Shown in pieces: positions 21,880-61,908 of a DNA stretch of 64,000 bases; position 1 is the stretch's first letter; the number at the start of each line of letters is the position of its first letter. The notes below the pieces were generated by a model. The model saw nothing but the letters and a program-made list of their open reading frames with translations. It searched no databases and was not told where the DNA came from. Position numbers and translations under genes: made by a program. The stretch lies in IMG/VR virus record IMGVR_UViG_3300009494_000372. One strand, 5' to 3'. This DNA comes from a virus.

Positions 21880-22119
21880 ATGGGCACAATCACCGTTAAC
21901 CTGAAAGACAACATCGAACAGGATTTCAGGGCAGTTGCCATCGAAACCTTTGGAGCGGGCAAAGGACATCTCGGTAAAGCACTCGCCGAAGCGTTGCAGA
22001 ACTGGGTATACGAACATAAGCAAGAGAGAATAGCCAGAACGGGAAAAGACATAATGAGGCACGGAAGTGTATTTGGAAAACGGTTATACGAACATAGAGA
22101 GGATTTGCATGAACGATGA
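21880..22119 (+). CDS. vapB: Antitoxin (ribbon-helix-helix, VapB-like)
   Basis: MGTITVNL..AEALQNW; overlaps the PIN gene; TTTAAATA box upstream. Confidence 0.7.
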   Translation: MGTITVNLKDNIEQDFRAVAIETFGAGKGHLGKALAEALQNWVYEHKQERIARTGKDIMRHGSVFGKRLYEHREDLHER

Positions 22120-22552
22120 ACTTGTATTAATCGATTCAAATATACTTGTGTACGCTTTTGACAAAAGCGAACCTGAAAAACAAAAGATATGCACAGAACT
22201 ACTCGATGAGTGTTGGAATGGAGCGCGAGAGTTTGCGGTTTCCGTACAGAATCTTTCAGAGTTCTACGTCATCGCGACCAGCAAGATCGAGAACCCGATT
22301 TCGAGAAAAACAGCGAGAATCTTTGTGACATCGGTTGTTCGGTTCAGAAAATGGAATGTGATTAACCTCGATGCAGAGGCGGTTGTGGATGCGATCAAAC
22401 TGAATGAGACTTATGGCATCCATTATTGGGATGCGGTGCTGGCTGCGACAATGAAAAAACATGGGATTTTCTCCATTTACACCGAGGACGGTCATTTTTC
22501 GAGGATTCCGTGGTTGACCGCGATTAACCCAATGGAGCAAACATGCCCTTAG
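22109..22552 (+). CDS. vapC: PIN-domain toxin (VapC-like)
   Basis: LIDSNILVY, QNLSEF, YWDAVLAAT and YTED catalytic motifs. Confidence 0.9.
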   Translation: MNDELVLIDSNILVYAFDKSEPEKQKICTELLDECWNGAREFAVSVQNLSEFYVIATSKIENPISRKTARIFVTSVVRFRKWNVINLDAEAVVDAIKLNETYGIHYWDAVLAATMKKHGIFSIYTEDGHFSRIPWLTAINPMEQTCP

Positions 22553-22667
22553 GACACGCTCAAAAACACAAAATAGAGATAACAGACGTTCTGATGTGGG
22601 GTGGAATCGCCATCATCCTCCTGTGGGCTATCGGCAAATCAGTTGGCTGGATTTAAACGCAGATCCC

Positions 22668-23942
22668 ATGCCCAAAAGAAAAATAGTTAAGTCCGTGAAG
22701 TTCCATCTGCTTCCGATCACAGCCGCTAAACGCGAGCGGCTCGAACGGATTTCCGAGAACTTCAGAGAGATTTACAATGTTGCCGCGGCAAGGCTGCCAT
22801 CCCTGCAGGACACAAGCAAGTTCAAGTCCAGGAATGCGCTCAACCGGCTGCGGATCGAGCTGCACGACATCACTTATGTGAAATCACAGATCGCCCAGGA
22901 AGCGATCGAGTACGCCAGGGCAAACTATGAGGCGATGGCGACACGGAAAGAGAGCATCCGCGCAACGATAAAAGGTCTTGAGCAAGGTCTTGAGGACATC
23001 GGTGATAATCCAAAACGAAAGAGAACGAGGATGAAGCTGGAGCGCAAACTCCGCAGGAACCGGAGGGCGCTACGCACCAGATACCCGACACTCAGGCGTC
23101 ACATCATCAGGATCCACAACCAGTCATGGCGGTTCGATGTGCGGACCAATCGCATATATGTGGTCGTTCCAGGCGAGCGAGTTGGCAGGCGGTACAAGGA
23201 GATATGGCTGCCCCTGAAAGAGAGCGAACACTACAGGTATCTTGTGAACACAACACCAAAATGGGGCGTCGGACAGCTCGACCTGGCGACTGACACATTC
23301 ATCACGTCGATGACCACAACGATCGACGTTGCGGATTACACGCCCGACACGTTCATCGGCGTCGATGTCAGCGGAGAAAACCTCGCAACACTCGTCGTTG
23401 TCAAAGGCGGCAAGGTACTGCAGGTGCAGATGTGGAGCGGACACGAGATCGATCACGTAAGAGCACGTTTCCTTGACTACCGACGCCGGATGCAGAAGGC
23501 TGACAGACTCGATCTCGTGAAGCAGAGCCGGGGACGTGAACAACGATGGATGCATTACACCAACCACGTAACATCCCGCAGGATCGCTGAGATCGCGGTT
23601 AAATACAAGCACCCGTTCGTAGCATTCGAGGAACTGCGCATACCCGCAGACGGACTCAGGTGGAACTCATACCAGCTCAGGCAGATGTCAGAATATAAGA
23701 TCGCAGCACACGGCATCCGCAGCATCACGCTATACGCATCGCGCAAGATCAGGAGCGATACGATATGCAGCGAATGCGGACACAACGAAGCGAACAACCG
23801 GAACGGCGCAACATTCAAATGCCTGAAATGCGGATACAGCGTACATACCGGGGTCAACACAGCCAAGAACCTCGCTAAACGCAGTGAAGAAGTGCTTGCG
23901 AAGGCTGCGAAAAAGAAGAAAGCGAAAGAGGAGAAAGATTAA
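22668..23942 (+). CDS. CRISPR-adjacent Cas12f/TnpB-like effector, predicted nuclease-dead
   Basis: RuvC-I GVDVS, RuvC-II FEEL, CSEC..CLKC; RuvC-III reads HTGVNTAKNL instead of H.D.NAA.NI; 390 nt upstream of the array. Confidence 0.8.
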   Translation: MPKRKIVKSVKFHLLPITAAKRERLERISENFREIYNVAAARLPSLQDTSKFKSRNALNRLRIELHDITYVKSQIAQEAIEYARANYEAMATRKESIRATIKGLEQGLEDIGDNPKRKRTRMKLERKLRRNRRALRTRYPTLRRHIIRIHNQSWRFDVRTNRIYVVVPGERVGRRYKEIWLPLKESEHYRYLVNTTPKWGVGQLDLATDTFITSMTTTIDVADYTPDTFIGVDVSGENLATLVVVKGGKVLQVQMWSGHEIDHVRARFLDYRRRMQKADRLDLVKQSRGREQRWMHYTNHVTSRRIAEIAVKYKHPFVAFEELRIPADGLRWNSYQLRQMSEYKIAAHGIRSITLYASRKIRSDTICSECGHNEANNRNGATFKCLKCGYSVHTGVNTAKNLAKRSEEVLAKAAKKKKAKEEKD

Positions 23943-24332
23943 TATAGGGGCGCATCATCACACTCTACCAATGGTGTCGCAGCTACATGATGCACGCCAG
24001 GGGTGGCGTTACACCGCCCGTGCGGCTGCCGTGCAGTCGCGAGATGCCAGCCTCAGATGACCAGTAATCGGAAGCCTATTGTTGAATCGTGGCTCAGGGC
24101 TGTGATGGGAAAAGATCGCGGTAAAGACGCGGCGCCGGAGAACAATCACTGAAACATACATCTGGTATGCAGACAGGAAAATCGATGGCAAGATTGGCAA
24201 CGCAGATGCCACCCTTCATCTCGCGCTGTGCGCGATTATAAGGGGATACATAACTTCGCGACAAGAAAAGCGACTGTGTGAGAGATACGGTCTACTTCGA
24301 TATTTTGCGCTGAAACGGGGTTTTCGGGTAGT
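23943..24332 (+). ncRNA. Candidate tracrRNA/leader region
   Basis: Non-coding; GTTACACCGC (24008-24017) and TTCGCGAC (24255-24262) are partly complementary to the repeat ends. Confidence 0.35.
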
Positions 24333-25473
24333 GTCGCGGGGCATGTTTCAGAGAGACATGCACTGTAACCTGGCGGCTCGTGAACAAGAGATCGTGCTTG
24401 AGGCTGGTCGCGGGGCATGTTTCAGAGAGACATGCACTGTAACCAGGGCGATGTGAGTCTATACGAACCGATCTATTGTCGCGGGGCATGTTTCAGAGAG
24501 ACATGCACTGTAACATCAGAAATCATCGATACCTGAAAAGCAGCAGGTAGAGGTCGCGGGGCATGTTTCAGAGGGACATGCACTGTAACTATAGTGCAAA
24601 GTTTGATTCCAAAACAGATTTGGATGGTGTCGCGGGGCATGTTTCAGAGAGACATGCACTGTAACGATTGAATGACCTATGCAGATGAAGCTCCCAAGGG
24701 TCGCGGGGCATGTTTCAGAGAGACATGCACTGTAACACAGGGCACACGGGTCAAACATAAGCGATACGCATTGTCGCGGGGCATGTTTCAGAGAGACATG
24801 CACTGTAACTTGTGACAAAATCGATTAGAATGTTATTTTAGCATAGTCGCGGGGCATGTTTCAGAGAGACATGCACTGTAACCTCTGCACTGCTTGCGGT
24901 TATGCGTTCCTCCAATCCGGGTCGCGGGGCATGTTTCAGAGAGACATGCGCTGTAACGAACGCCAGTGAGCTGTATATGGCTCCCGGGTGACGTCGCGGG
25001 GCATGTTTCAGAGAGACATGCACTGTAACTGCCTGCATATTCTGATTTGGTTGGATACATCGCCGAGTCGCGGGGCATGTTTCAGAGGGACATGCGCTGT
25101 AACGTTAAAGGCTATCGATAAAACAGCTCCTGCAACGTAATGTCGCGGGGCATGTTTCAGATAGACATGCGCTGTAACGGCGGAGTCATGATCAGGCGTT
25201 GATGATCATCCATCTCAAGTCGCTGGCATGTTTCAGAGGGACATGCACTGTAACTTCCCAGGTTTATTTCATGCATGGTTTTTCACATAGGGTCGCGGGG
25301 CATGTTTCAGAGAGACATGCGCTGTAACTATGCGATCACACAGAATTAAATGCAATTGGAATCTGGGTAGCGGGGCATGTTTCAGAGAGACATGCACTGT
25401 AACTCTACAATGATCTCATTACCCTTGTGACGTATAGTCGCGGGGCATGTTTCAGAGGGACATGCGATGTAAC
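24333..25473 (+). CRISPR. CRISPR array: 16 repeats of 37 nt (GTCGCGGGGCATGTTTCAGAGAGACATGCACTGTAAC), 15 spacers of 33-40 nt
   Basis: Repeats at 24333, 24407, 24478, 24553, 24629, 24700, 24773, 24846, 24921, 24993, 25067, 25142, 25219, 25292, 25367 and 25437; degeneracy increases rightwards; partial repeat at 25492-25503. Confidence 0.97.
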
Positions 25474-25892
25474 GATAACTTACAGATGGATATGCGCTGT
25501 AACCATGGGGACGGTATCTGGAATCCGGGTGGATTATTGGTGAAAATCGAGGAAGATTATGAACATAATGGATAATGGCAGGGTTGATGCGATATTAGGC
25601 AGGTTGCAAGAGCAACTCGATAAGGATCCCAAAGAGCTCGAGCTGGTGCTCGACATCATTGAGGAGGTAATCTAAGTGAAATTCACGCCACCACAGACCC
25701 TCAAGCCAGAGGATGTACCGGACGTTTTCGGTGGTGATGAATTCACCATCAACGTATCAAAGGTCAAAGACTCGTTCACGGATTTCCTGAACATGGCAGA
25801 GTTCCTGAAAACAACTACCCTGACCTGCAAGACATGCAGCGAATTCCCATGCCACCGCAGCCAGGATCCGGACCAGAAGATCGGGTTCTGCT

Positions 25893-26243: not shown

Positions 26244-26262
26244 CTGGAAAATCGTGATCGCT

Positions 26263-27589
26263 TGCCTGCGATGTGTCGATATGCATCTAAAAAAGACACA
26301 ATCACCGCAGGCGAAAGGTTTTTAACCTTATTGATTAAAAAGATTATTGTCGATATGCAGGAAATAGTCAGAGCGTATAAGGCAGAGTTAAAGCTCAACA
26401 ACAAGCAGACCACCGATTGCACAAACCACATCAACGCGGCTCGGTTCGCGTGGAATTGGGGTCTGGCACGCCGGATTGAAGCATACAAAGAGCAGGGCGT
26501 ATCGTTGAATGCCATAAGTCTGCACAGAGAGCTTAACAGTCTCAAAAAAACAGAGCTGTCATGGCTGTACGGCGTCAGTAAATGCGCACCACAAGAAGCG
26601 TTGAGAGACCTGGATAAGGCATACACTAACTTTTTCGATCATAGAGCAAGATACCCACGATTTAAAACGAAAAAAGGGAAGCGAAGTAAACGAACATTCC
26701 GTTTAACCGGTGCTATTAAAGTATTCACAGATTCTATTCAGTTGCCACGTCTCGGGCGATTGCGACTGAAAGAGCGTGATTATCTACCATCCGACAAACA
26801 CATCCTATCGGCAACCGTATCCGAGACAGCAGGACACTGGTTTGTCTCAGTACAGGTGAAAGAGGCTGTTGAATTTCCATCTAACAACGGAGAGATCGCT
26901 GGAGTCGATTTAGGGATCAAGACGATGGCTTACGTTTCAGATGGCACAACCTTCGAGAGTCCGAAAGCATTGAAACGATATGAGCGGAAACTAAAACGTG
27001 CTCAACGAAAAGTTTCAAGGAGAGTGAAAGGTAGCAACAACCGGATAAAAGCCGTAAAAGAATTGCAAAGAATCCACAAACGGATAAGAGACATTAGAAC
27101 AGATGCTATCCACAAAACAACGAACCATCTGGCAAAAACCAAGTCAGTAATAGTGCTCGAAGACCTTAACGTAAAAGGGATGATGAAAAATCATTGTCTC
27201 GCAAAAGTGATAGCAGACGTCGGGCTGTATGAATTTCGCAGGCAGATGGAATACAAGTGTCCGCTATACGGGTCAGAATTGGTCTTCGCTGATCGATTCT
27301 TCCCATCAAGTAAGATGTGTTCGCGGTGCGGACACATCAAAACAGACCTCACACTGTCACAACGGACGTTTATCTGCGATGAATGCGGATTCATGATAGA
27401 CAGAGATCACAATGCAAGTCTTAACTTGAGACAGGTGGCTGTCAGTTTGACGGACACCTTAAAAACGCCTGTTGGAGAAGGAAGCTCTGGCTTGCTCGAT
27501 ATTGGAGCAAGTGAAACTTTCTTTGATGAATCAGGAAATAAACACTATTTGGGTATAGGTGTCCTGAATGGTTAAGTTTTATATAACGG
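26263..27589 (+). mobile_element. Non-autonomous tnpB-only IS element, copy 2
   Basis: Near-duplicate of 3721-5047; ends in ...ATAACGG. Confidence 0.75.
26355..27575 (+). CDS. tnpB: TnpB RNA-guided endonuclease, RuvC intact
   Basis: GVDLG, VLEDL and DRDHNAS. Confidence 0.92.
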   Translation: MQEIVRAYKAELKLNNKQTTDCTNHINAARFAWNWGLARRIEAYKEQGVSLNAISLHRELNSLKKTELSWLYGVSKCAPQEALRDLDKAYTNFFDHRARYPRFKTKKGKRSKRTFRLTGAIKVFTDSIQLPRLGRLRLKERDYLPSDKHILSATVSETAGHWFVSVQVKEAVEFPSNNGEIAGVDLGIKTMAYVSDGTTFESPKALKRYERKLKRAQRKVSRRVKGSNNRIKAVKELQRIHKRIRDIRTDAIHKTTNHLAKTKSVIVLEDLNVKGMMKNHCLAKVIADVGLYEFRRQMEYKCPLYGSELVFADRFFPSSKMCSRCGHIKTDLTLSQRTFICDECGFMIDRDHNASLNLRQVAVSLTDTLKTPVGEGSSGLLDIGASETFFDESGNKHYLGIGVLNG

Positions 27590-28267: not shown

Positions 28268-29236
28268 TTATTCCTCCAGTATTTTCTCAAGTAGTTCCAT
28301 CTTCCCATTATTCAGTTCCGGATGCTTTAGCCGGATCGCACGCAGCATATCCGTCGGATAGACATTCCTGTGATGCAGTTTCGCAAGCGTAATAGCAATC
28401 CGGATCATTGACTCCTCGTCCCGGATGCTGCCGGTGGATTCTGTCAACACCAGATACATCTCCATCAGCTTTACCATCACAACCCGGGTGCCGTCACTAA
28501 TGCCCGGTTCAAAGTCACTGATCCAGCGTAGATAGTTTCGCAGGTTTATGCCGTCGTATCCCTCTTTCGGTCGGTACCAGTTCATGACCCTTGAGCGCAT
28601 GATCTCACGCTTGAAGTCATGATCCGGTTTCAAGACCTCAAACTTGAAGTCAAACCGATCCATCAGTTCCGGAGCGAACTTTGACGTCTCGTTCGCACAC
28701 GCTATGCACCGAACCCTTGCATCAATCACCGTATGCGTCTTCCCGACATCGATATGTATCTTACCCTCTTCCAGAGCCTCCAGAAGTCCCTGAAGCGATT
28801 TCTGATCGAACTTGTCCAATTCATCGAGGCAACAGACACTATCGTTCGCTTTCGGCAATGCACCGAGTGTAATTTCGTTCCCGGACGCATCCGCCGTCAG
28901 ACCGACTCTCGATGACCTCATCGATGCACCAACCGCACCCTGCTTGAACACGAGCCAGTCCGTGATCATCGTCTTCGCCGTCCCTGGGTCTCCAAACATC
29001 AGGACATGAATCCTGCCGCGGTCCCCGTGCCGGTCGCCATGTGATGCGAGGGCGAGCACAACAGCACGCTTCACATCATCCATGCCCGTAATTTTGGGAT
29101 TGATCGATGGATACCAGTATTCGAGCATGTCCTCGGTCTCGCATAGTTCCTTGAACTCCTGTTCCAACCCGGCATCGATGCCGCCAAGTTCAGCCGCTTC
29201 GAGCGATTCTATAAAGCCATCACCTGTTTCTGACAT
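28268..29236 (-). CDS. mcm: MCM-family AAA+ helicase lacking the N-terminal domain
   Basis: GDPGTAKT Walker A, CLDELDK Walker B, IACAN sensor and LMDRFD arginine finger. Confidence 0.85.
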   Translation of the reverse strand: MSETGDGFIESLEAAELGGIDAGLEQEFKELCETEDMLEYWYPSINPKITGMDDVKRAVVLALASHGDRHGDRGRIHVLMFGDPGTAKTMITDWLVFKQGAVGASMRSSRVGLTADASGNEITLGALPKANDSVCCLDELDKFDQKSLQGLLEALEEGKIHIDVGKTHTVIDARVRCIACANETSKFAPELMDRFDFKFEVLKPDHDFKREIMRSRVMNWYRPKEGYDGINLRNYLRWISDFEPGISDGTRVVMVKLMEMYLVLTESTGSIRDEESMIRIAITLAKLHHRNVYPTDMLRAIRLKHPELNNGKMELLEKILEE

Positions 29237-29462
29237 ATCTGATCACCTTCCCTGTCGCGTAGTCTTATGTTTATAGTCATACCCTCCGGATTTTATATCT
29301 GATTGCGTAGCCTTTACAGAGTTAACAGTCATTTTGCCTGAAATGACATCTGCAAAACCGCATTCATGCACTACAGCCATCGCAAAATTACGGTCTTTAG
29401 CACCTAACGCTCTCCAAAACGCGTATGTGATACGCAGTCTCTTTATCCTACCGATCTGCATA

Positions 29463-29666
29463 TCAGATCACCTTCAGACTTTTGAGAACCAGCGCATAGA
29501 CTCCAGCCGCGAATGCCGACACTACACCTAAAGTAAGGCATGTCAACAGGCTGTTGGGGTCGTGCCGGTATATCGTTACTCCTGCGACGAATGATGCCAC
29601 GCTGTTGCATAGAATAAACGCGAGAAGAGCCCTATCCACAAATTTCCAGACCTGCATACCGATCAC
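29463..29666 (-). CDS. Small membrane protein
   Basis: Two hydrophobic segments. Confidence 0.4.
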   Translation of the reverse strand: MIGMQVWKFVDRALLAFILCNSVASFVAGVTIYRHDPNSLLTCLTLGVVSAFAAGVYALVLKSLKVI

Positions 29667-29899
29667 CTCATGTACGTCCGATCACCGAAACCATCATCCA
29701 TAACGTCGCGATTGATGGTCGTCGTTTGCACCTCTGCGATCTCGGCGTATTCAGTCCAATACTCCGGAAACGCCTCTTCGATGCGATCCCTGTTGAGCTG
29801 ATCAGCAATGCGCAATGCCTGACCGAGACACTGCACGAAATGACCGCCATACTGGATCATCGCTGCCGCAACCGCCTGCGCTTCATCATAGCTTGTCAT
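29663..29899 (-). CDS. Small protein, tandem paralog of 29896-30078
   Basis: GGHFVQCLGQAL..DRIEEAFPEYW vs GTIFVRCLGEAL..QRIKEAFPELW. Confidence 0.55.
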   Translation of the reverse strand: MTSYDEAQAVAAAMIQYGGHFVQCLGQALRIADQLNRDRIEEAFPEYWTEYAEIAEVQTTTINRDVMDDGFGDRTYMR

Positions 29900-30078
29900 G
29901 GCTCTGTCTCCATCGCTTTCCTCAGATTCACCTTCCAAAGTTCCGGAAACGCCTCTTTGATACGCTGCCTGTCATCATGATCAGCAACGTACAATGCCTC
30001 GCCCAAACAACGCACAAAAATAGTGCCACGCTCCGCCATCGTTTTCGCGACTAAATGCGCTTCTTCATATTCGTTCAT
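29896..30078 (-). CDS. Small protein, tandem paralog of 29663-29899
   Basis: Alignment given for 29663-29899. Confidence 0.55.
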   Translation of the reverse strand: MNEYEEAHLVAKTMAERGTIFVRCLGEALYVADHDDRQRIKEAFPELWKVNLRKAMETEP

Positions 30079-30746
30079 GCCTCAACCCTCATGTTCCGGA
30101 TTGATTCCAGCAGCTCGGCACCATCAGTCTTTTTGCCGCCTCCGGATGCAGCCTTCTGTAGCTCGTTGATCGCGAGTCGCATGTCACCATCGCAGCTCCG
30201 TGAAATATCCTCAATCTCGCCGTTCAGGTCAAGACCCTCGCATTCTGCGATGTACTCAAGTCGCTTCCGGATCGCATCAGAACCGATCTTCTCGAACTCC
30301 AGGACTACGCACCGGCTCCGGATCGGCTTGCTGAAGATGTCGTTGTTCGCCGAAAGGATGAACCGCGTCGAACCGCGTTCCTCCAGTGGCTTCCGGAGCA
30401 TGTTCTGCGCCTGCGTTGTGAGTCCATCGGATTCATCCAGGAAGATGATCTTCACTTTCGTGAACATCGGCTGGTGTGCCGTACTTTTGATCACGTCCCG
30501 GATCGTATCGACACCTCTCTCATTCGATGCGTTGTACTCTGTGAAGTTCGTCTCAAAGAACTCTTTGAGCAATTCCTTCCCGATTATGTACGCGACGGTC
30601 GTCTTCCCGGTGCCCGGCTCTCCGATCATCCTGATGTTCGGGATGTCATGGTCTCGCTCGATCATGCCCTTTACCGTGGTCACGATCTCATCCTGACCGA
30701 CCACATCATCAAAAGCCTGCGGTCTATACTTTTCAGTCCACATCAT
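30075..30746 (-). CDS. rfcS: Replication factor C small subunit-like clamp loader (short)
   Basis: WTEKYRP, GEPGTGKTT, YNASNERG, FLDESD, IRSRC and GDMRLAINELQ. Confidence 0.9.
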   Translation of the reverse strand: MMWTEKYRPQAFDDVVGQDEIVTTVKGMIERDHDIPNIRMIGEPGTGKTTVAYIIGKELLKEFFETNFTEYNASNERGVDTIRDVIKSTAHQPMFTKVKIIFLDESDGLTTQAQNMLRKPLEERGSTRFILSANNDIFSKPIRSRCVVLEFEKIGSDAIRKRLEYIAECEGLDLNGEIEDISRSCDGDMRLAINELQKAASGGGKKTDGAELLESIRNMRVEA

Positions 30747-31182
30747 GCTCTTTCACCACCATCGTTGCTTGTAACGCTTCGATGAATCGCTCAACATCTT
30801 CTTTTGTGTAGAATCCAACGTGTGCAGTGACGCCTTCAACAACGTCATTCACTATCAAGTAAGGCATACGAACCCCTACCTGTTCTGCTACCTTGATAGA
30901 TCCACCATAGCATGTATTGATTTCTATCATCGCCTCACGCCTCCGTTTGCCTCACTCCTAACGCATCACTCATCGCCTCAAGTTCACGCATCAGTTCACG
31001 AAATTCAGGGTTGAATCGCTCTGCCTTGCCACCCTTCAGCCATGACTCAATCCGCCCCTTATGGTTCTTAACAGCCCATAGCACATACTCCATCTCTGCA
31101 AGGTATGTCTTGATGCTGTAACAATCCTTCTGCCGCACCTGCTCGGCTTTAAAGACGCGTTCAATGGTAGGCATCAGTGTCT

Positions 31183-31866
31183 TCATGGTTCTTTCGCCTC
31201 CGATTTATCGAGGTTTTCACCAACCCATGTCAAAAAATCGCCGCCGTGGATGTGTAATTTCCAATAATCGTACCATTTTGACAACGATCTTGTTTCGTTC
31301 AGGCTCTTGCTGTGATACAGTCTACCAGCGAACTCCGCACAACTTTGTATCTCCTCGTCGGTGGGGAGTCTGCCCTTCGTGTGCATCGTTATTTCACGCA
31401 GATGATCTTCGGACAACCAAAACCCCATACGTGCGAGTAGATCGACATCCCGTGTCTTTATCGTGTGTTGTTCCGGATTGTCCTGATACTGTATCAGTGT
31501 CCTGTTAAACTCGTCAGTGTAGAGCCATGCGAGACTGTGCCCCTCATCACTGTCCAGCGCAGCCAAACACTGGATGAACAGCAGTCGTTCAAGCAGATCA
31601 TCCTTAAAATAGTCGATAACCCGCTCATAGAACTTAATGAGTGCCTCTCGCCTCACAGACATGTCATGCAGTGTCTGTATCGTGCGTTGTTCAGGGATAG
31701 TCCCTCCGGTCTCGGCTGCGGCTGTGATATATCGCCTCGCGTTCACCAGTGCAATATGCACCGCCGATAATTCCGGCACATCCACCAGTATGGCAATATC
31801 ATCTGTGAGTAGCTTCCCAATGTTATCAAGGTCAACAAAGACCCCTTCTACACTTCCTCCTACCAT
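31183..31866 (-). CDS. Hypothetical protein
   Basis: 227-aa ORF in the minus-strand early-gene array. Confidence 0.5.
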   Translation of the reverse strand: MVGGSVEGVFVDLDNIGKLLTDDIAILVDVPELSAVHIALVNARRYITAAAETGGTIPEQRTIQTLHDMSVRREALIKFYERVIDYFKDDLLERLLFIQCLAALDSDEGHSLAWLYTDEFNRTLIQYQDNPEQHTIKTRDVDLLARMGFWLSEDHLREITMHTKGRLPTDEEIQSCAEFAGRLYHSKSLNETRSLSKWYDYWKLHIHGGDFLTWVGENLDKSEAKEP

Positions 31867-32107
31867 AGTTACTCACCTGCCTCCACAAACTCCTTTTTCA
31901 AACCCTGCATCCACCGTTCGGCAGAGGTCGCCTGCTCTCCCTGCGCCTCCACAACCTTCTGGTACTCCGTGATTGCGCCATCAAACGCGTCCCTTATCTC
32001 AACCTCAGTTAGATGATTTGCCTTAAGCATGTCCTGAAGGAATGTCGCCTCCAGGGATGTTGCCTCACGGGATACCCGCTCAACGTATGTGACCTCATCT
32101 CCTGTTG

Positions 32108-32566
32108 TCATGCTCCTTTCACCGCCTCCCGGATCGCTGTCTCCATGATCTCCTGCCATCCCTCAAGACCTGCCGCAACCATCTTTTTCACGCGGTCCAT
32201 CTGCTCATCAGTGAGTGGCTCCTCCAGTTCCATGCTGTGTGCCATGATCTGTGCGTCCTCCTCGGTCAATGCGAAGAGTGTTGCATCATAGCTCGCTCGG
32301 TCAAGGTTCATGCACGTCCAGTACTTGAATGGGGTGCCGTCCGCCATCTCGTGCCAGAACTGTCGCCATTCCTCCAGGGGTCGCGTCACGCTGAGTCCCC
32401 GGTGACGATATAACACGCTCTTATATTCCGCGTACCATCCGGCATTCCGTGATGCCGCGTCAAATGCATCGAGGCATTCTTTCCCGCCGACGTAATGACC
32501 CGCGTTGATCATCGCGTCCTCGAATGCAGATTGAAGTTCCGTCCTGTGCTTGTTTGTGTCTTCCAT
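32108..32566 (-). CDS. Hypothetical protein
   Basis: 152-aa ORF, operonic. Confidence 0.5.
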   Translation of the reverse strand: MEDTNKHRTELQSAFEDAMINAGHYVGGKECLDAFDAASRNAGWYAEYKSVLYRHRGLSVTRPLEEWRQFWHEMADGTPFKYWTCMNLDRASYDATLFALTEEDAQIMAHSMELEEPLTDEQMDRVKKMVAAGLEGWQEIMETAIREAVKGA

Positions 32567-32610
32567 GTTCTCGCCTGCCTAAAGTTGTGATTGTAACCCT
32601 CCGGTTACAA

Positions 32611-32868
32611 TCAAACATTTACGATCTTGTGCCTGTGCCATCGCTTCACGTACTCGATGTAGTCTGCCGGATCATCCGACACATCCGCGTCCTCATAAGG
32701 TTTGAACGGATGAACCCTGCAAGGTTTCCGCTCCCATGAGAACTCATAAGTTCCGTCGCGGTGCTCATGTACCTTCCAAAGTCGAAATACATGATACAAC
32801 CCGCTCGGTTTTAGAATGATCTTAACCAGTTCCTGAAAACTGTCGTACACAAACACGGGATCGCTCAT
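32611..32868 (-). CDS. Small protein paralogous to the C-terminus of 33673-34437
   Basis: KPYEDADV.DDPA...VKRW..HKI motif shared. Confidence 0.55.
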   Translation of the reverse strand: MSDPVFVYDSFQELVKIILKPSGLYHVFRLWKVHEHRDGTYEFSWERKPCRVHPFKPYEDADVSDDPADYIEYVKRWHRHKIVNV

Positions 32869-32959
32869 ACTGCTGCCTCCGGTCTATCCATATTCTCGCC
32901 TCATACAACGATTTGCCCCGCACGGCTGCCGCCATGCAGGTTTACAAAAGAAGATAGGG

Positions 32960-33673
32960 CTATTCCGCATGATTCATGAATTTAAACGCGTGGTCTGCCA
33001 TCAGTCCCATCATAAAGACATAATCGGTCATGTACATGTTGATCTTCGCAAGTTTCACGATGTCGCCGTTAATGTCAATCCCATAGAGATTCCGCCCGTA
33101 CTGCGATGACGCGATCCACCCGTGCTTTTTGTGTATCACACACCTTGCAGCGATCAGCATAACACCAGTGCCGCAGCAAGGATCAAGGATTGCACCCTCT
33201 GGCTCCGGATTAAGCATACTCGCCATCATGTGCGCCACATGAAACGGTGTAAAGAACTCACCGCCCTTCCCGGAACTGACATGATTCATGTAGAAATCCC
33301 CCAAAGGATCGCCATAATTCCCGTCGATAAAGAATGCCATCAACTCGCCGAACATCTGGCTATAACCCGTTAATTTCTCGCGTTTCATCCCCTTGATGAG
33401 TGACATATAATCATCCTCTCGCTGTTCGAGCACCGCAAGGATCACGTCCGCAAACTCGTAAATCTTCGCGTTCATGTGGTAGATCTTATCCCATATTTCC
33501 CCCATCCGGCTGCCCACCTGTGCCGCCAATCCCGGATTAGGCTTTGCTATGAAGTCCTCAATAATCCGCGGCTCGGCTGCCGCGGTCTCCTTCAAGACCG
33601 CGGTCGCCGTCTCAACCTTCTGCATGAACCCGTTAAGGGTGGTCTGTGCCGCGTCCGGTGATTTACGTCGCAT
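32960..33673 (-). CDS. N6-adenine methyltransferase-like (HsdM-type) protein lacking an NPPY/F motif
   Basis: GEFFTP, ILDPCCGTG and YGIDI present; no motif IV before the stop. Confidence 0.7.
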   Translation of the reverse strand: MRRKSPDAAQTTLNGFMQKVETATAVLKETAAAEPRIIEDFIAKPNPGLAAQVGSRMGEIWDKIYHMNAKIYEFADVILAVLEQREDDYMSLIKGMKREKLTGYSQMFGELMAFFIDGNYGDPLGDFYMNHVSSGKGGEFFTPFHVAHMMASMLNPEPEGAILDPCCGTGVMLIAARCVIHKKHGWIASSQYGRNLYGIDINGDIVKLAKINMYMTDYVFMMGLMADHAFKFMNHAE

Positions 33674-60345: not shown

Positions 60346-60638
60346 GGTCTGATCTTCGGCGGACCGTCCGGGTAGTACTCGGCGTACACCTTCGGAACGA
60401 GCATTTTCGCGGTCGGGAATCCCATGTGCGACATGACCCGCCGTATCAGGTTATCTATCTCGTGGTTCCCCCATTCCGGGTGTTCTCCTTTGCGAAACTT
60501 GCACAGAGCCTCGATGAACAGCCGTGCCTCGTGCAACTCAGCCGGTATGAGAATATCTTTACTTGGTATGTGAATATCTTTCGTGACTTCCTCCCCGCTC
60601 TGAAGGAGCGAGGCTTCCGCTTCATAGAGGTTGCTCAT
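60336..60638 (-). CDS. Small protein, paralog of 62802-62999
   Basis: EID...R.MSH.G.P.AK..VP..YA..YP.GPPK shared. Confidence 0.55.
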   Translation of the reverse strand: MSNLYEAEASLLQSGEEVTKDIHIPSKDILIPAELHEARLFIEALCKFRKGEHPEWGNHEIDNLIRRVMSHMGFPTAKMLVPKVYAEYYPDGPPKIRPWR

Positions 60639-61747
60639 GCAACCGTCTCCGCTGGCTTAAAATCCCCACAGTCCGTGGGTATATATCTATTCTCGATGTT
60701 GATTGCGGCGTTGTGATCCCTGCCAATCGTGTTGCCGCACGCAGAGCACTCGTATGTCCTCTGCGATAGTGGCATCGGCTGGATATTGCCGCAAACACAA
60801 CATTCCTGACTTGTGCGTCTCGGATTAACCAGTCCAACGACACCACCAGCGTATTCTGCTTTGTAGGTCGTAAAATTGATTAACATTCCCCAAGAAGCAT
60901 CGTGAATTGATCTTGCAAGATGATGGTTCTGCACCATGTTTTTGATCTGCAAGTCCTCAAATACAATTTGATCGTAAGTATCCGCAAGTATCCGGCTCGC
61001 TTTGTGCATGTAGTCATTCCGGACGTTCCTGATCTTCCGGTGGATTCGGGCAACCTTCAGTTTCTGTTTCTTCCAGTTGTTCGAGCCCTTCTGCTTACGC
61101 GATAAGTCTTTCTGCGCTTTCCTTAGCTTTGAGTCGTACTTATCGAGGGGCTTGGGATTCTCGATCTCCGTACCATCGGATAAGGTCGCAAGCGTAGTAA
61201 TTCCAACATCCACACCAACAGAGGTTAGAATCTCCTTTGGCTCCGGATCCGGCAGTTCCACGCTGAAGGATGCATACCACTGATCTGCATCCCGCTTGAT
61301 CGTGCAGGTCTTGACATTCCCTTCGATCTCTCGATTCAGGAAGATTCTTATCGCCCCGATCTTCGAGAGATGAAGTTTACCATCTTCGATCTTATATCCG
61401 GTTCCGTAAGGGTCTGGATACGTGAATGAGTCGTAGCGATCCCTACCCTGAAACCGCGGGTATCCCGGCTTATTCCCATTCTTAACACGTCTGAAAAAGT
61501 TTTTGAAAGAGGTATCTACGCGGCGTAGAACGTTCTGAAGGATGTGGGCGTACACCCCGTGGTAGTCTGTATACTTTAGCCATCTCACCTGATCGTAATA
61601 CGATAACCCACAATGACAGTCCTCATAAGCTATTTTGCGGTCGTGTAATGAGTCGTTGTACAATTTCCGGCACACAGAGAGCACATACAGTAATAATATG
61701 TTTTGCTTTCGGGTGGGGTATATCCGGTATTTAAACGTCTTACGCAT
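60635..61747 (-). CDS. tnpB: IS200/IS605-family TnpB, RuvC intact; no tnpA
   Basis: MRKTFKYRIYP, GVDVG, VFEDL, TSQECC and GRDHNAAIN. Confidence 0.92.
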   Translation of the reverse strand: MRKTFKYRIYPTRKQNILLLYVLSVCRKLYNDSLHDRKIAYEDCHCGLSYYDQVRWLKYTDYHGVYAHILQNVLRRVDTSFKNFFRRVKNGNKPGYPRFQGRDRYDSFTYPDPYGTGYKIEDGKLHLSKIGAIRIFLNREIEGNVKTCTIKRDADQWYASFSVELPDPEPKEILTSVGVDVGITTLATLSDGTEIENPKPLDKYDSKLRKAQKDLSRKQKGSNNWKKQKLKVARIHRKIRNVRNDYMHKASRILADTYDQIVFEDLQIKNMVQNHHLARSIHDASWGMLINFTTYKAEYAGGVVGLVNPRRTSQECCVCGNIQPMPLSQRTYECSACGNTIGRDHNAAINIENRYIPTDCGDFKPAETVA

Positions 61748-61908
61748 GTTACCGATAAACTCTTTAACCAGAGTGTATATATGGTTTGTGCTTGCTCGCG
61801 GCGATGCGTTTTTTGCGCATGTTACCAACGCCGCTGGCAAGCAAAACGTTTTTACGCCTTCTTTTTGTGTGTACATGATTACCCATCCCTATTATTTACA
61901 ACTTTAAA

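Follow-up and report, generated by a model that had tools for sequence, protein, structure and literature searches.

How does a small CRISPR effector act once one of its three catalytic residues is gone, and what does the element that carries it gain from keeping it? The question is raised by a locus within a 64,000-nt stretch of IMG/VR virus record IMGVR_UViG_3300009494_000372, referred to here as the window. In this locus, the gene for a Cas12f-like effector is followed by a conserved structured RNA, termed the scaffold, and then by a CRISPR array. In the effector, Gly replaces the Asp of RuvC-III. The analysis favors, with fair rather than strong confidence, an RNA-guided DNA binder that serves competition between elements and that is similar to Cas12m in its action, having arisen independently of it. 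Positions of the features are collected in Table 1, and related loci are designated L001 to L015.

Loss of a catalytic Asp in a Cas12f-like effector

The reading frame of the effector gene is open from 22596 to 23942, and its start was placed at the ATG at 22668, where the homologues begin (MPKRK or MTKRK); the product is thus a protein of 424 aa. The RuvC-I residue, Asp233, lies within GVDVSG, and the RuvC-II residue, Glu321, within VAFEEL. When the C-terminal third of the protein is aligned with solved Cas12f by phmmer, Gly395 stands opposite the Asp of the a-D-y-N-A-A-r-N-I motif of AsCas12f and OsCas12f. This alignment agrees with the preliminary description of the locus, which had assigned Asp, Glu and Gly (GGG) to the three RuvC positions of a 424-aa protein. 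Neither the TNB domain nor the RuvC-III helix is truncated; the Asp alone is replaced. Cys367, 370, 385, and 388 of the zinc finger, together with Arg378, are near-invariant across the family.

In the Pfam scan, the effector matched only the TNB domain (PF07282, Cas12f1-like, residues 335-402), without a match to PF01385 (OrfB_IS605) or PF12323 (helix-turn-helix, HTH). Its scores with the NCBIfam models are low: 70 bits for guided_TnpB, which has a cutoff of 100, and 53.3 bits for CRISPR_Cas12f2, which has a cutoff of 450 and was covered only in its C-terminal half. An AlphaFold2 model made with the family alignment as input has a mean predicted local distance difference test (pLDDT) score of 85.6. 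The best Foldseek matches of this model in the PDB are AsCas12f, SpCas12f, and OsCas12f (E ~1e-18, TM ~0.6); TnpB, solved dCas12f, Cas12g, Cas12m, and Cas12k all rank below active Cas12f. According to the model, then, the effector has a Cas12f fold, and it is coupled to an array, in keeping with the derivation from Cas12f/TnpB that had been proposed. Its lid is ~5 residues shorter than that of AsCas12f. A short lid had been offered as a mark of inactivation, but a lid of equal length is present in the Asp-intact clade B described below, so the length of the lid says nothing on inactivation.

A search for relatives among 5.8 billion proteins yielded 33, all of them metagenomic, which together with the window protein make a family of 34. 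A profile-free exhaustive search of 1.8 billion representatives gave just 7 clusters with E values below 1e-30, followed by the general TnpB superfamily. Gly or Ser occupies the RuvC-III position in all 19 proteins of clade A, whose members are 67-93% identical to the window protein. Asp is present at this position in 33 of the 33 other relatives examined, namely 7 from clade B, 7 from clade C, 18 more distant representatives, and the TnpB of the window. In the maximum-likelihood tree, the Gly/Ser proteins form one clade on a long stem, with support of 100/100, and the distinct lineage suggested earlier is thereby supported. This clade branches from within the Asp-intact clade B, and its Ser proteins in turn fall among those with Gly. 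Thus, the Asp was lost a single time, by a change from Asp to Gly that was followed by one from Gly to Ser.

From locus to locus, the Gly codon shows synonymous variation (GGG, GGA, or GGT). Because Gly or Ser is also found in 19 proteins from independent samples, Gly395 is not a read error, as had been argued before. Among five members of clade A, pairwise ratios of nonsynonymous to synonymous substitution (dN/dS) are 0.10-0.26 overall and 0.09-0.35 in the RuvC/TNB half. These low values indicate that the clade A proteins are functional and under purifying selection rather than the products of decaying genes. An analysis of clade-specific residues revealed no newly fixed acidic residue near the active site in clade A; the gains beside the site are Lys400 and a three-residue insertion carrying Arg359. 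The lack of an acidic gain speaks against a rearrangement of the active site like those that Altae-Tran et al. catalogued. To judge from its residues, the effector would be without cleavage activity.

Scaffold RNA and repeat array

The ~390 nt between the effector gene and the array are conserved more strongly than the protein itself. A profile of the scaffold detects exactly one copy before every array in the 13 array-holding loci, with E values of 5e-99 to 4e-59 for full copies. The second array in each of L001 and L002 has its copy as well, as do the inverted clade B units, and the start of a copy is present at the cut end of L004. When clade B is included, RNAalifold predicts 75 consensus pairs, 31 of which show double-sided compensatory changes; alignments with shuffled columns gave 6 such pairs on average and 13 at most. 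The consensus energy of -73 kcal/mol compares with -20 +/- 4 kcal/mol for the shuffled alignments. A TATA-like box lies 14-22 nt upstream of the scaffold in 9 of the 9 copies examined, representing both clades, and probably serves as the promoter of the scaffold RNA.

One hairpin loop of the scaffold is complementary to the end of the repeat. Loop and repeat end read GUUACA and UGUAAC throughout the clade A loci; clade B (L005, L010) has GUUGCA and UGCAAC. This compensatory change between the clades argues that a 6-bp contact has been kept and that scaffold, repeat, and effector form one unit. Such a contact is similar to the guide-proximal pseudoknot of omega-RNAs and Cas12f guide RNAs. Judged from its covariation, the scaffold is like a trans-activating CRISPR RNA (tracrRNA) and is tied to the effector. 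A long duplex between repeat and anti-repeat was also sought, and only a weak, inconsistent 10-bp candidate was found. In the window, L008, and L002, this tentative second anti-repeat yields the best duplex at one and the same alignment column, and L002 shows a single compensatory change; in L001 the candidate does not fit, and it is in competition with internal hairpins.

Each repeat can form a hairpin, GCATGTTTC-AGA-GAGACATGC, with a 9-bp stem that includes one G.U pair. The hairpin is kept in related loci, and the 16-repeat array with a strong internal hairpin that was first described is therefore sound; one of the 16 repeats carries a 1-nt deletion. The repeats are perfect near the scaffold and degenerate farther off, which identifies the scaffold side as the leader end. 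This polarity, the TATA box on the scaffold side, and the T-rich 5' flank of the protospacer (below) together indicate that transcription runs from scaffold to array on the + strand.

Among the related loci retrieved by exact-protein look-up, arrays of the same repeat family lie downstream of the effector gene in the clade A loci L001, L002 (with L003), L008, and L009. L004, a third copy of the L002 element, stops just short of its array. The five clade A elements that were read hold 6-27 repeats each, one of the arrays being cut by a contig end. In clade B (L005-L007 and L010), mini-arrays of 2-5 related repeats are found upstream of the gene and on the opposite strand. Like clade A, the Asp-intact relatives are CRISPR-linked, and effector, scaffold, and array occur together in 13 of 13 array-holding loci, in two gene orders. 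L001 (4666-7267) and L002 (5603-9396) each contain two complete scaffold-plus-array units. The repeat variants of the two L001 arrays differ in both the loop and the stem of the hairpin, which suggests that units have been duplicated or exchanged between elements. The repeats of clade B (L005 9381-9691; L010 ~1290-1410) make the Asp-intact arrays short compared with those of clade A. In this small sample, the arrays may have expanded after the loss of the Asp.

The spacers of these arrays are replaced rapidly. No spacer of the window array is present in the arrays of L001, L002, L008, or L009, elements whose effectors are 73-87% identical to that of the window. The assembly of the likely source sample is broken at the first repeat, and a variant from which two repeat-spacer units are missing is present as well. 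Taken together, these observations indicate spacer turnover.

Neither the window nor the stretches read of 14 related loci yielded any other cas gene. PADLOC, run on 80 open reading frames (ORFs) of the window, reported a standalone reverse transcriptase (RT) and methyltransferase models, the others being unlisted by the tool; the 68 ORFs remaining after removal of the annotated ones gave no matches. No Cas6 appeared in the PADLOC scans of window ORFs. A match to 'Cas1_IIIb' was rejected because it covers just the RT part of the model (positions 41-291 of 617). Likewise, neither the related loci nor two sibling assemblies have Cas families in their gene tables, and Cas1 was not encountered anywhere. 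The collinear sibling, L013, adds ~8 kb without cas genes; the other, L012, is not collinear. The reported lack of adaptation genes in the window is thus upheld.

The repeat core pattern and the scaffold motif are both absent from 185,579 species-representative genomes. The repeat core pattern is also absent from viral contig collections, and the effector protein has no match in viral contigs. One version of the scaffold motif, which misses L001 by one base, had no match in viral and metagenome contigs, and a version that admits L001 had none in metagenome and genome contigs. With the genome scans empty and no Cas1 in sight, the earlier idea that a host supplies the spacers finds no support.

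Spacer targets and the action of the complex

The leader-proximal spacer, spacer 1, matches the window itself at 39656-39685 in 29 of 30 bases (E 4e-10). Across the full spacer, the mismatches to this own copy fall at positions 3, 4, 6, 7, and 20, so that 4 of the 5 lie in the seven bases next to the putative protospacer adjacent motif (PAM). The homologous gene has 3 mismatches to spacer 1 in L014 and 4 in L015. All readable target copies (window, L014, L015) have the 5' flank GAGTTA in common; the PAM would be a 5' T-rich motif, GTTA in the single case seen. In cold-seep metagenome contigs from another study, the alignment starts from base 1 of spacer 1, and the 30 nt before these matches are identical in 25 of 30 positions to the window sequence upstream of its own site. 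Hence, a closer protospacer is present in a sister element there. In frame, spacer 1 encodes a variant of the peptide of the target gene, and this variant peptide, together with the closer matches in sister elements, indicates that the spacer was derived from a sister element.

The target ORF (39496-40263, +) has no Pfam domain. It is a core gene, with 43 homologues besides the copy in the window, two of them on the contigs that encode the L001 and L008 effectors. Within this gene, the first of a long rightward operon, the target is located 150-190 nt from the start. The CRISPR RNA (crRNA) would pair with the template strand of the gene, and this is the strand on which dCas12a blocks elongation best. 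A spacer is therefore aimed at a core gene of sister elements and carries seed mismatches to the element's own copy, which, given where the seed of a type V effector would lie, are predicted to protect that copy. The preliminary description had proposed that the system silences competing elements. One spacer is indeed aimed at related elements; silencing itself is a prediction.

The two codons under the seed of spacer 1 (window 39649-39655, L014 6178-6184, L015 10154-10160) encode the dipeptide SS, TS, TA, or VA among the homologues; the spacer has AA at this place. The residues on either side are conserved, as is the GTTA flank. The variation of the dipeptide could reflect escape from targeting or merely low constraint.

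In the mechanism proposed here, the locus would form a type V-like module without Cas1 that is complete in itself and is borne by an archaeal extrachromosomal element. The promoter at the end of the effector gene would drive synthesis of the ~300-nt scaffold RNA and the downstream array. The scaffold loop would pair with the last six bases of the repeat, and scaffold and crRNA would together load the Cas12f-like protein. The complex would then recognize DNA beside a 5' T-rich motif (GTTA) and, having Gly in place of the third catalytic Asp, would stay bound without cutting. Silencing would be the outcome of this binding: the bound complex would block transcription or replication of incoming sister elements, resulting in superinfection exclusion. 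A bolder version, which is doubtful enough to be put forward only tentatively, holds that this is the first archaeal class 2 system that binds rather than cuts, that archaeal elements of methane seeps use it to exclude their sisters while a cutting sister clade shares the scaffold, and that spacers are acquired without Cas1-Cas2 of the element's own. Acquisition would presumably proceed via an incompatible-looking host system or an unknown integration route.

Several points weigh against a binder of this kind. A target was identified for 1 of the 66 spacers extracted from the arrays, and in readable DNA the target of spacer 1 is no closer than 3 mismatches. Of the 84.8-kb contig, ~20 kb falls beyond the window, only ~8 kb of this part being visible via the sibling assembly, and among the listed runs holding the locus, none is recorded as RNA. 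The loss of cleavage is deduced from a single residue, while Asp233, Glu321, and Arg378 stay invariant. In some Cas12a orthologues, mutation of the third Asp lowers activity without abolishing it. Furthermore, altered RuvC-III sites can still be active according to the census of Altae-Tran et al. (2023).

One alternative refines the binding reading rather than replacing it. By analogy with Cas12c and Cas12m, the retained Asp/Glu pair might process pre-crRNA in a protein that is otherwise a binder. Neither of the two catalytic residues that remain varies, processing is required for long multi-spacer arrays, and there is no Cas6; moreover, the RuvC site processes RNA in Cas12c, Cas12j, and Cas12m. 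These three enzymes keep the full catalytic triad, however, and processing by the pair alone is possible but questionable.

It is unlikely, though worth serious attention, that the effector still cuts, by residual two-residue catalysis, as a nickase, or with a rearranged site that the sequence does not reveal, which would make the locus an ordinary cleaving mini type V system. The argument of Altae-Tran et al. that conserved RuvC-III alterations can retain activity would apply here, given that the zinc finger is invariant along with Asp233, Glu321, and Arg378 and that the RuvC/TNB half is under purifying selection. Yet the replacement drifts between Gly and Ser, with neither a conserved alternative catalytic residue nor a clade-specific acidic residue to take over. 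In published mutants, Cas12f and TnpB are inactive when the equivalent Asp is mutated.

A third possibility is self-regulation, in which spacer 1 would tune the element's own operon much as TldR and dCas12f tune host genes. The sole target found within the window is indeed a core gene of the element itself, and a long operon begins with it. However, the own copy is the worst of the three readable matches, with four mismatches in the first seven bases, and the complete turnover of arrays between close relatives is unlike the behavior of fixed regulatory guides; this explanation is quite improbable. Equally little can be said for the idea that the bound complex recruits a partner, for instance the PIN nuclease encoded next to it, an integrase, or a replication factor, so that binding would be no more than the targeting step, in the manner of Cas12k or dCas12f-sigmaE. 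The window, L001, and L009 do have a PIN-domain gene immediately upstream of the effector, but it overlaps a small upstream ORF, like a VapBC addiction pair, the upstream gene is different in L002 and L008, and no partner is conserved across the clade. Finally, that the array serves another Cas system, of the host or elsewhere on the element, with the effector a bystander relative of TnpB, is scarcely credible: adaptation genes are not seen and the window leaves out ~20 kb of the contig, but effector, scaffold, and array travel together in all 13 array-holding loci and in both gene orders, the scaffold loop covaries with the end of the repeat, the repeat pattern and scaffold motif are absent from the 185,579 genomes and from the viral and metagenome collections tested, and at the place where the window has its intact TnpB (26262), sister loci have none.

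If the effector is a binder, RNA-guided silencing without cutting would have evolved again, in archaeal mobile elements and by the change of a single residue. The cutting ancestor type would persist beside the binder, with the same guide scaffold, and provide a natural before-and-after pair for the conversion of a nuclease to a repressor. Such a pair bears on which further changes turn a Cas12 nuclease into a binder, on how self is told from near-self by seed mismatches, and on how arrays grow without Cas1. The 424-aa protein with its defined scaffold would also be a candidate for a compact natural dCas12 for gene regulation. Ecologically, the locus points to RNA-guided warfare among elements of methane-cycling sediment archaea.

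The element and its relation to known systems

In addition to the CRISPR module, the element encodes replication proteins of archaeal type, namely an MCM helicase and an RFC-like ATPase. It also has an integrase-like ORF, a methyltransferase, a standalone RT, and four tRNAs, and it carries three intact TnpB insertion sequences. Neither a capsid nor a terminase was recognized. Given this lack and its archaeal-type replication genes, it is classed as an archaeal extrachromosomal element rather than a virus. The earlier designation as an archaeal virus is accordingly not supported. The replication module is conserved in L001, L008, L014, and L015, and DNA runs with parts of the locus come from marine sediment, cold seep, and brine.

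Table 1. Positions of features of the locus and of the surrounding element
Feature	Position	Strand	Remarks
Effector gene, Cas12f-like, RuvC-III Gly/Ser clade (clade A)	22668-23942	+	424 aa
RuvC-I Asp233 codon GAT	23364-23366	+	invariant in 34/34 family members
RuvC-II Glu321 codon GAG	23628-23630	+	invariant in 34/34 family members
CxxC...CxxC zinc finger of TNB domain, including conserved Arg378	23766-23831	+	family alignment
Gly395 codon GGG at RuvC-III Asp position	23850-23852	+	alignment with solved Cas12f
TATA-like box TTAATATA, putative scaffold promoter	23939-23946	+	overlaps effector stop codon
Conserved structured scaffold RNA, tracrRNA-like	23961-24260	+	~300 nt; profile search and covariation
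Hairpin loop GUUACA	24008-24013	+	complementary to last 6 nt of repeat, UGUAAC
Tentative second anti-repeat GCCCGUGCGGC	24016-24026	+	could pair with repeat nucleotides 1-10
Leader between scaffold and first repeat	24261-24332	+	partly conserved across five loci
CRISPR array	24333-25473	+	16 repeats of 37 nt, 15 spacers of 33-39 nt
Spacer 1, leader-proximal	24370-24406	+	
Terminal repeat, truncated and degenerate	25474-25503	+	17th copy, abuts array
Own near-protospacer of spacer 1	39649-39685	+	5 mismatches over 37 nt; 5' flank GTTA
Small ORF overlapping PIN-domain gene, VapBC-like pair	window 21880-22552; L001 2589-3261; L009 4700-5360	+ (window)	
Three full-length TnpB genes	3660-5033; 26262-27575; 60635-61876	+; +; -	all three Pfam domains each
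Standalone reverse transcriptase, 362 aa	13730-14818	+	PADLOC RT 7e-39; without Cas1 domain
Replication module: MCM helicase, RFC-like AAA+ ATPase, N6 DNA methyltransferase	28268-33673	-	archaeal type

The TnpB gene at 26262, just past the array, is the one of the three that was scored with NCBIfam guided_TnpB (328 bits), and its RuvC-III Asp is present. It is absent at that position in L001, L002, and L008, and is thus an independent IS insertion. The VapBC-like pair lies directly upstream of the effector in 3 of 5 clade A loci; L002 has a different small pair at this place, and L008 has none. The standalone RT is syntenic in L008. At 44917-46650 the window contains ~45 units with a 36-nt period, beside a 321-aa ORF (46608-47573, -) that has a weak match to Pfam Transposase_20 (E 1e-3); this periodic region was considered as a CRISPR array of the repeat family studied here and rejected. 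The element also carries a cluster for the biosynthesis of a nonulosonic-acid-type sugar (window 1-3700, L013 2215-11493), with genes for NeuB, a CMP-sugar transferase, epimerases, a DegT aminotransferase, a radical SAM protein, and an MptE-like protein.

Among known systems, Cas12f (type V-F; AsCas12f, SpCas12f1, OsCas12f, Un1Cas12f) provides the best whole-length structural match. The two are similar in size, and both have the TNB zinc finger and an array accompanied by a helper RNA that is long and structured; in both, the repeat ends with AAC and the 5' flank is T-rich. Unlike Cas12f, the window effector has Gly for the RuvC-III Asp, is only ~15-18% identical in sequence, lacks cas1, cas2, and cas4, pairs repeat with scaffold by a 6-bp loop contact rather than a long duplex, and resides on an archaeal element.

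Cas12m (type V-M; PMC11013384, PMC11656645), which is non-cleaving and plasmid-borne and blocks transcription, is the closest functional analogue. Both systems are borne by mobile elements, lack adaptation genes, and are guided by arrays, and for the window effector binding without cutting, and with it suppression of competing elements, is predicted, in line with the sequence evidence. Nevertheless, Cas12m2 is no relative: it ranks 32nd in Foldseek (E 2e-8, TM 0.40), and Cas12m2 structures give TM values of 0.37-0.43. Cas12m is also larger (chains of ~520-590 residues) and bacterial, and it is not known to use a tracrRNA.

Hoffmann et al. 2026 (PMC13472631) described bacterial (Bacteroidota) dCas12f proteins, some near arrays and with covarying RNAs upstream of the arrays. 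In these proteins, a C-terminal truncation removes part of RuvC, and most occur with sigmaE or HTH genes and use single guides to host promoters. The window effector, in contrast, is full length with a point replacement, and it has no sigma or HTH partner, its neighbors being the small ORF and PIN gene upstream and the scaffold and array downstream. It differs further in its long arrays with fast turnover, in its target on a rival element, and in its archaeal-type element (MCM, RFC-like protein, TATA boxes). Active Cas12f matches the fold of the effector better than the solved structure of dCas12f (9n9c) does.

TnpB-linked arrays have been reported on unclassified circular Methanoperedens elements from wetland soil (Shi et al. 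2023, bioRxiv 10.1101/2023.08.02.551345). These elements, ~85-93 kb long, are of the same type and size as the one in the window and are similar in having no viral or plasmid hallmarks, a small TnpB/Cas12f-like gene beside an array, no Cas1, and population-variable spacers that target other elements. For them, a conserved active site was reported and cleavage is expected, with no scaffold RNA described; compared by description only, this active site fits clade B better than the Gly/Ser clade. Moreover, the window family comes from marine sediment and cold seeps rather than wetland soil.

TldR resembles the window effector in its derivation from TnpB, in its loss of RuvC function, and in RNA-guided binding, the last two being predicted for the window effector. 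However, TldR uses one fixed guide of the omega-RNA type, directed to a host promoter, and has no array, whereas clade A carries arrays of 6-27 repeats. Unlike TnpB of IS200/IS605, the effector falls below the guided_TnpB cutoff and is without the OrfB_IS605 and HTH domains. As for Cas12k-type transposition, no Pfam match to tnsB, tnsC, or tniQ was found in the 30 larger window ORFs or in the Pfam tables of related loci; the ~50 smaller ORFs were not Pfam-scanned, and transposition genes may fall outside the PADLOC scans, which cover defence proteins.

Altae-Tran et al. 2023 defined 40 candidate subtypes, V-U6 to V-U45, some of them archaeal and some with altered catalytic sites, and the window family, compared with them by description only, may be one of these. 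The possibly new lineage of the preliminary description is therefore narrowed by prior art, namely the Methanoperedens arrays, dCas12f, Cas12m, and V-U6 to V-U45. What stands is a real and coherent locus of a known kind, an independent archaeal variant that differs in a single residue and is accompanied by an informative sister clade.

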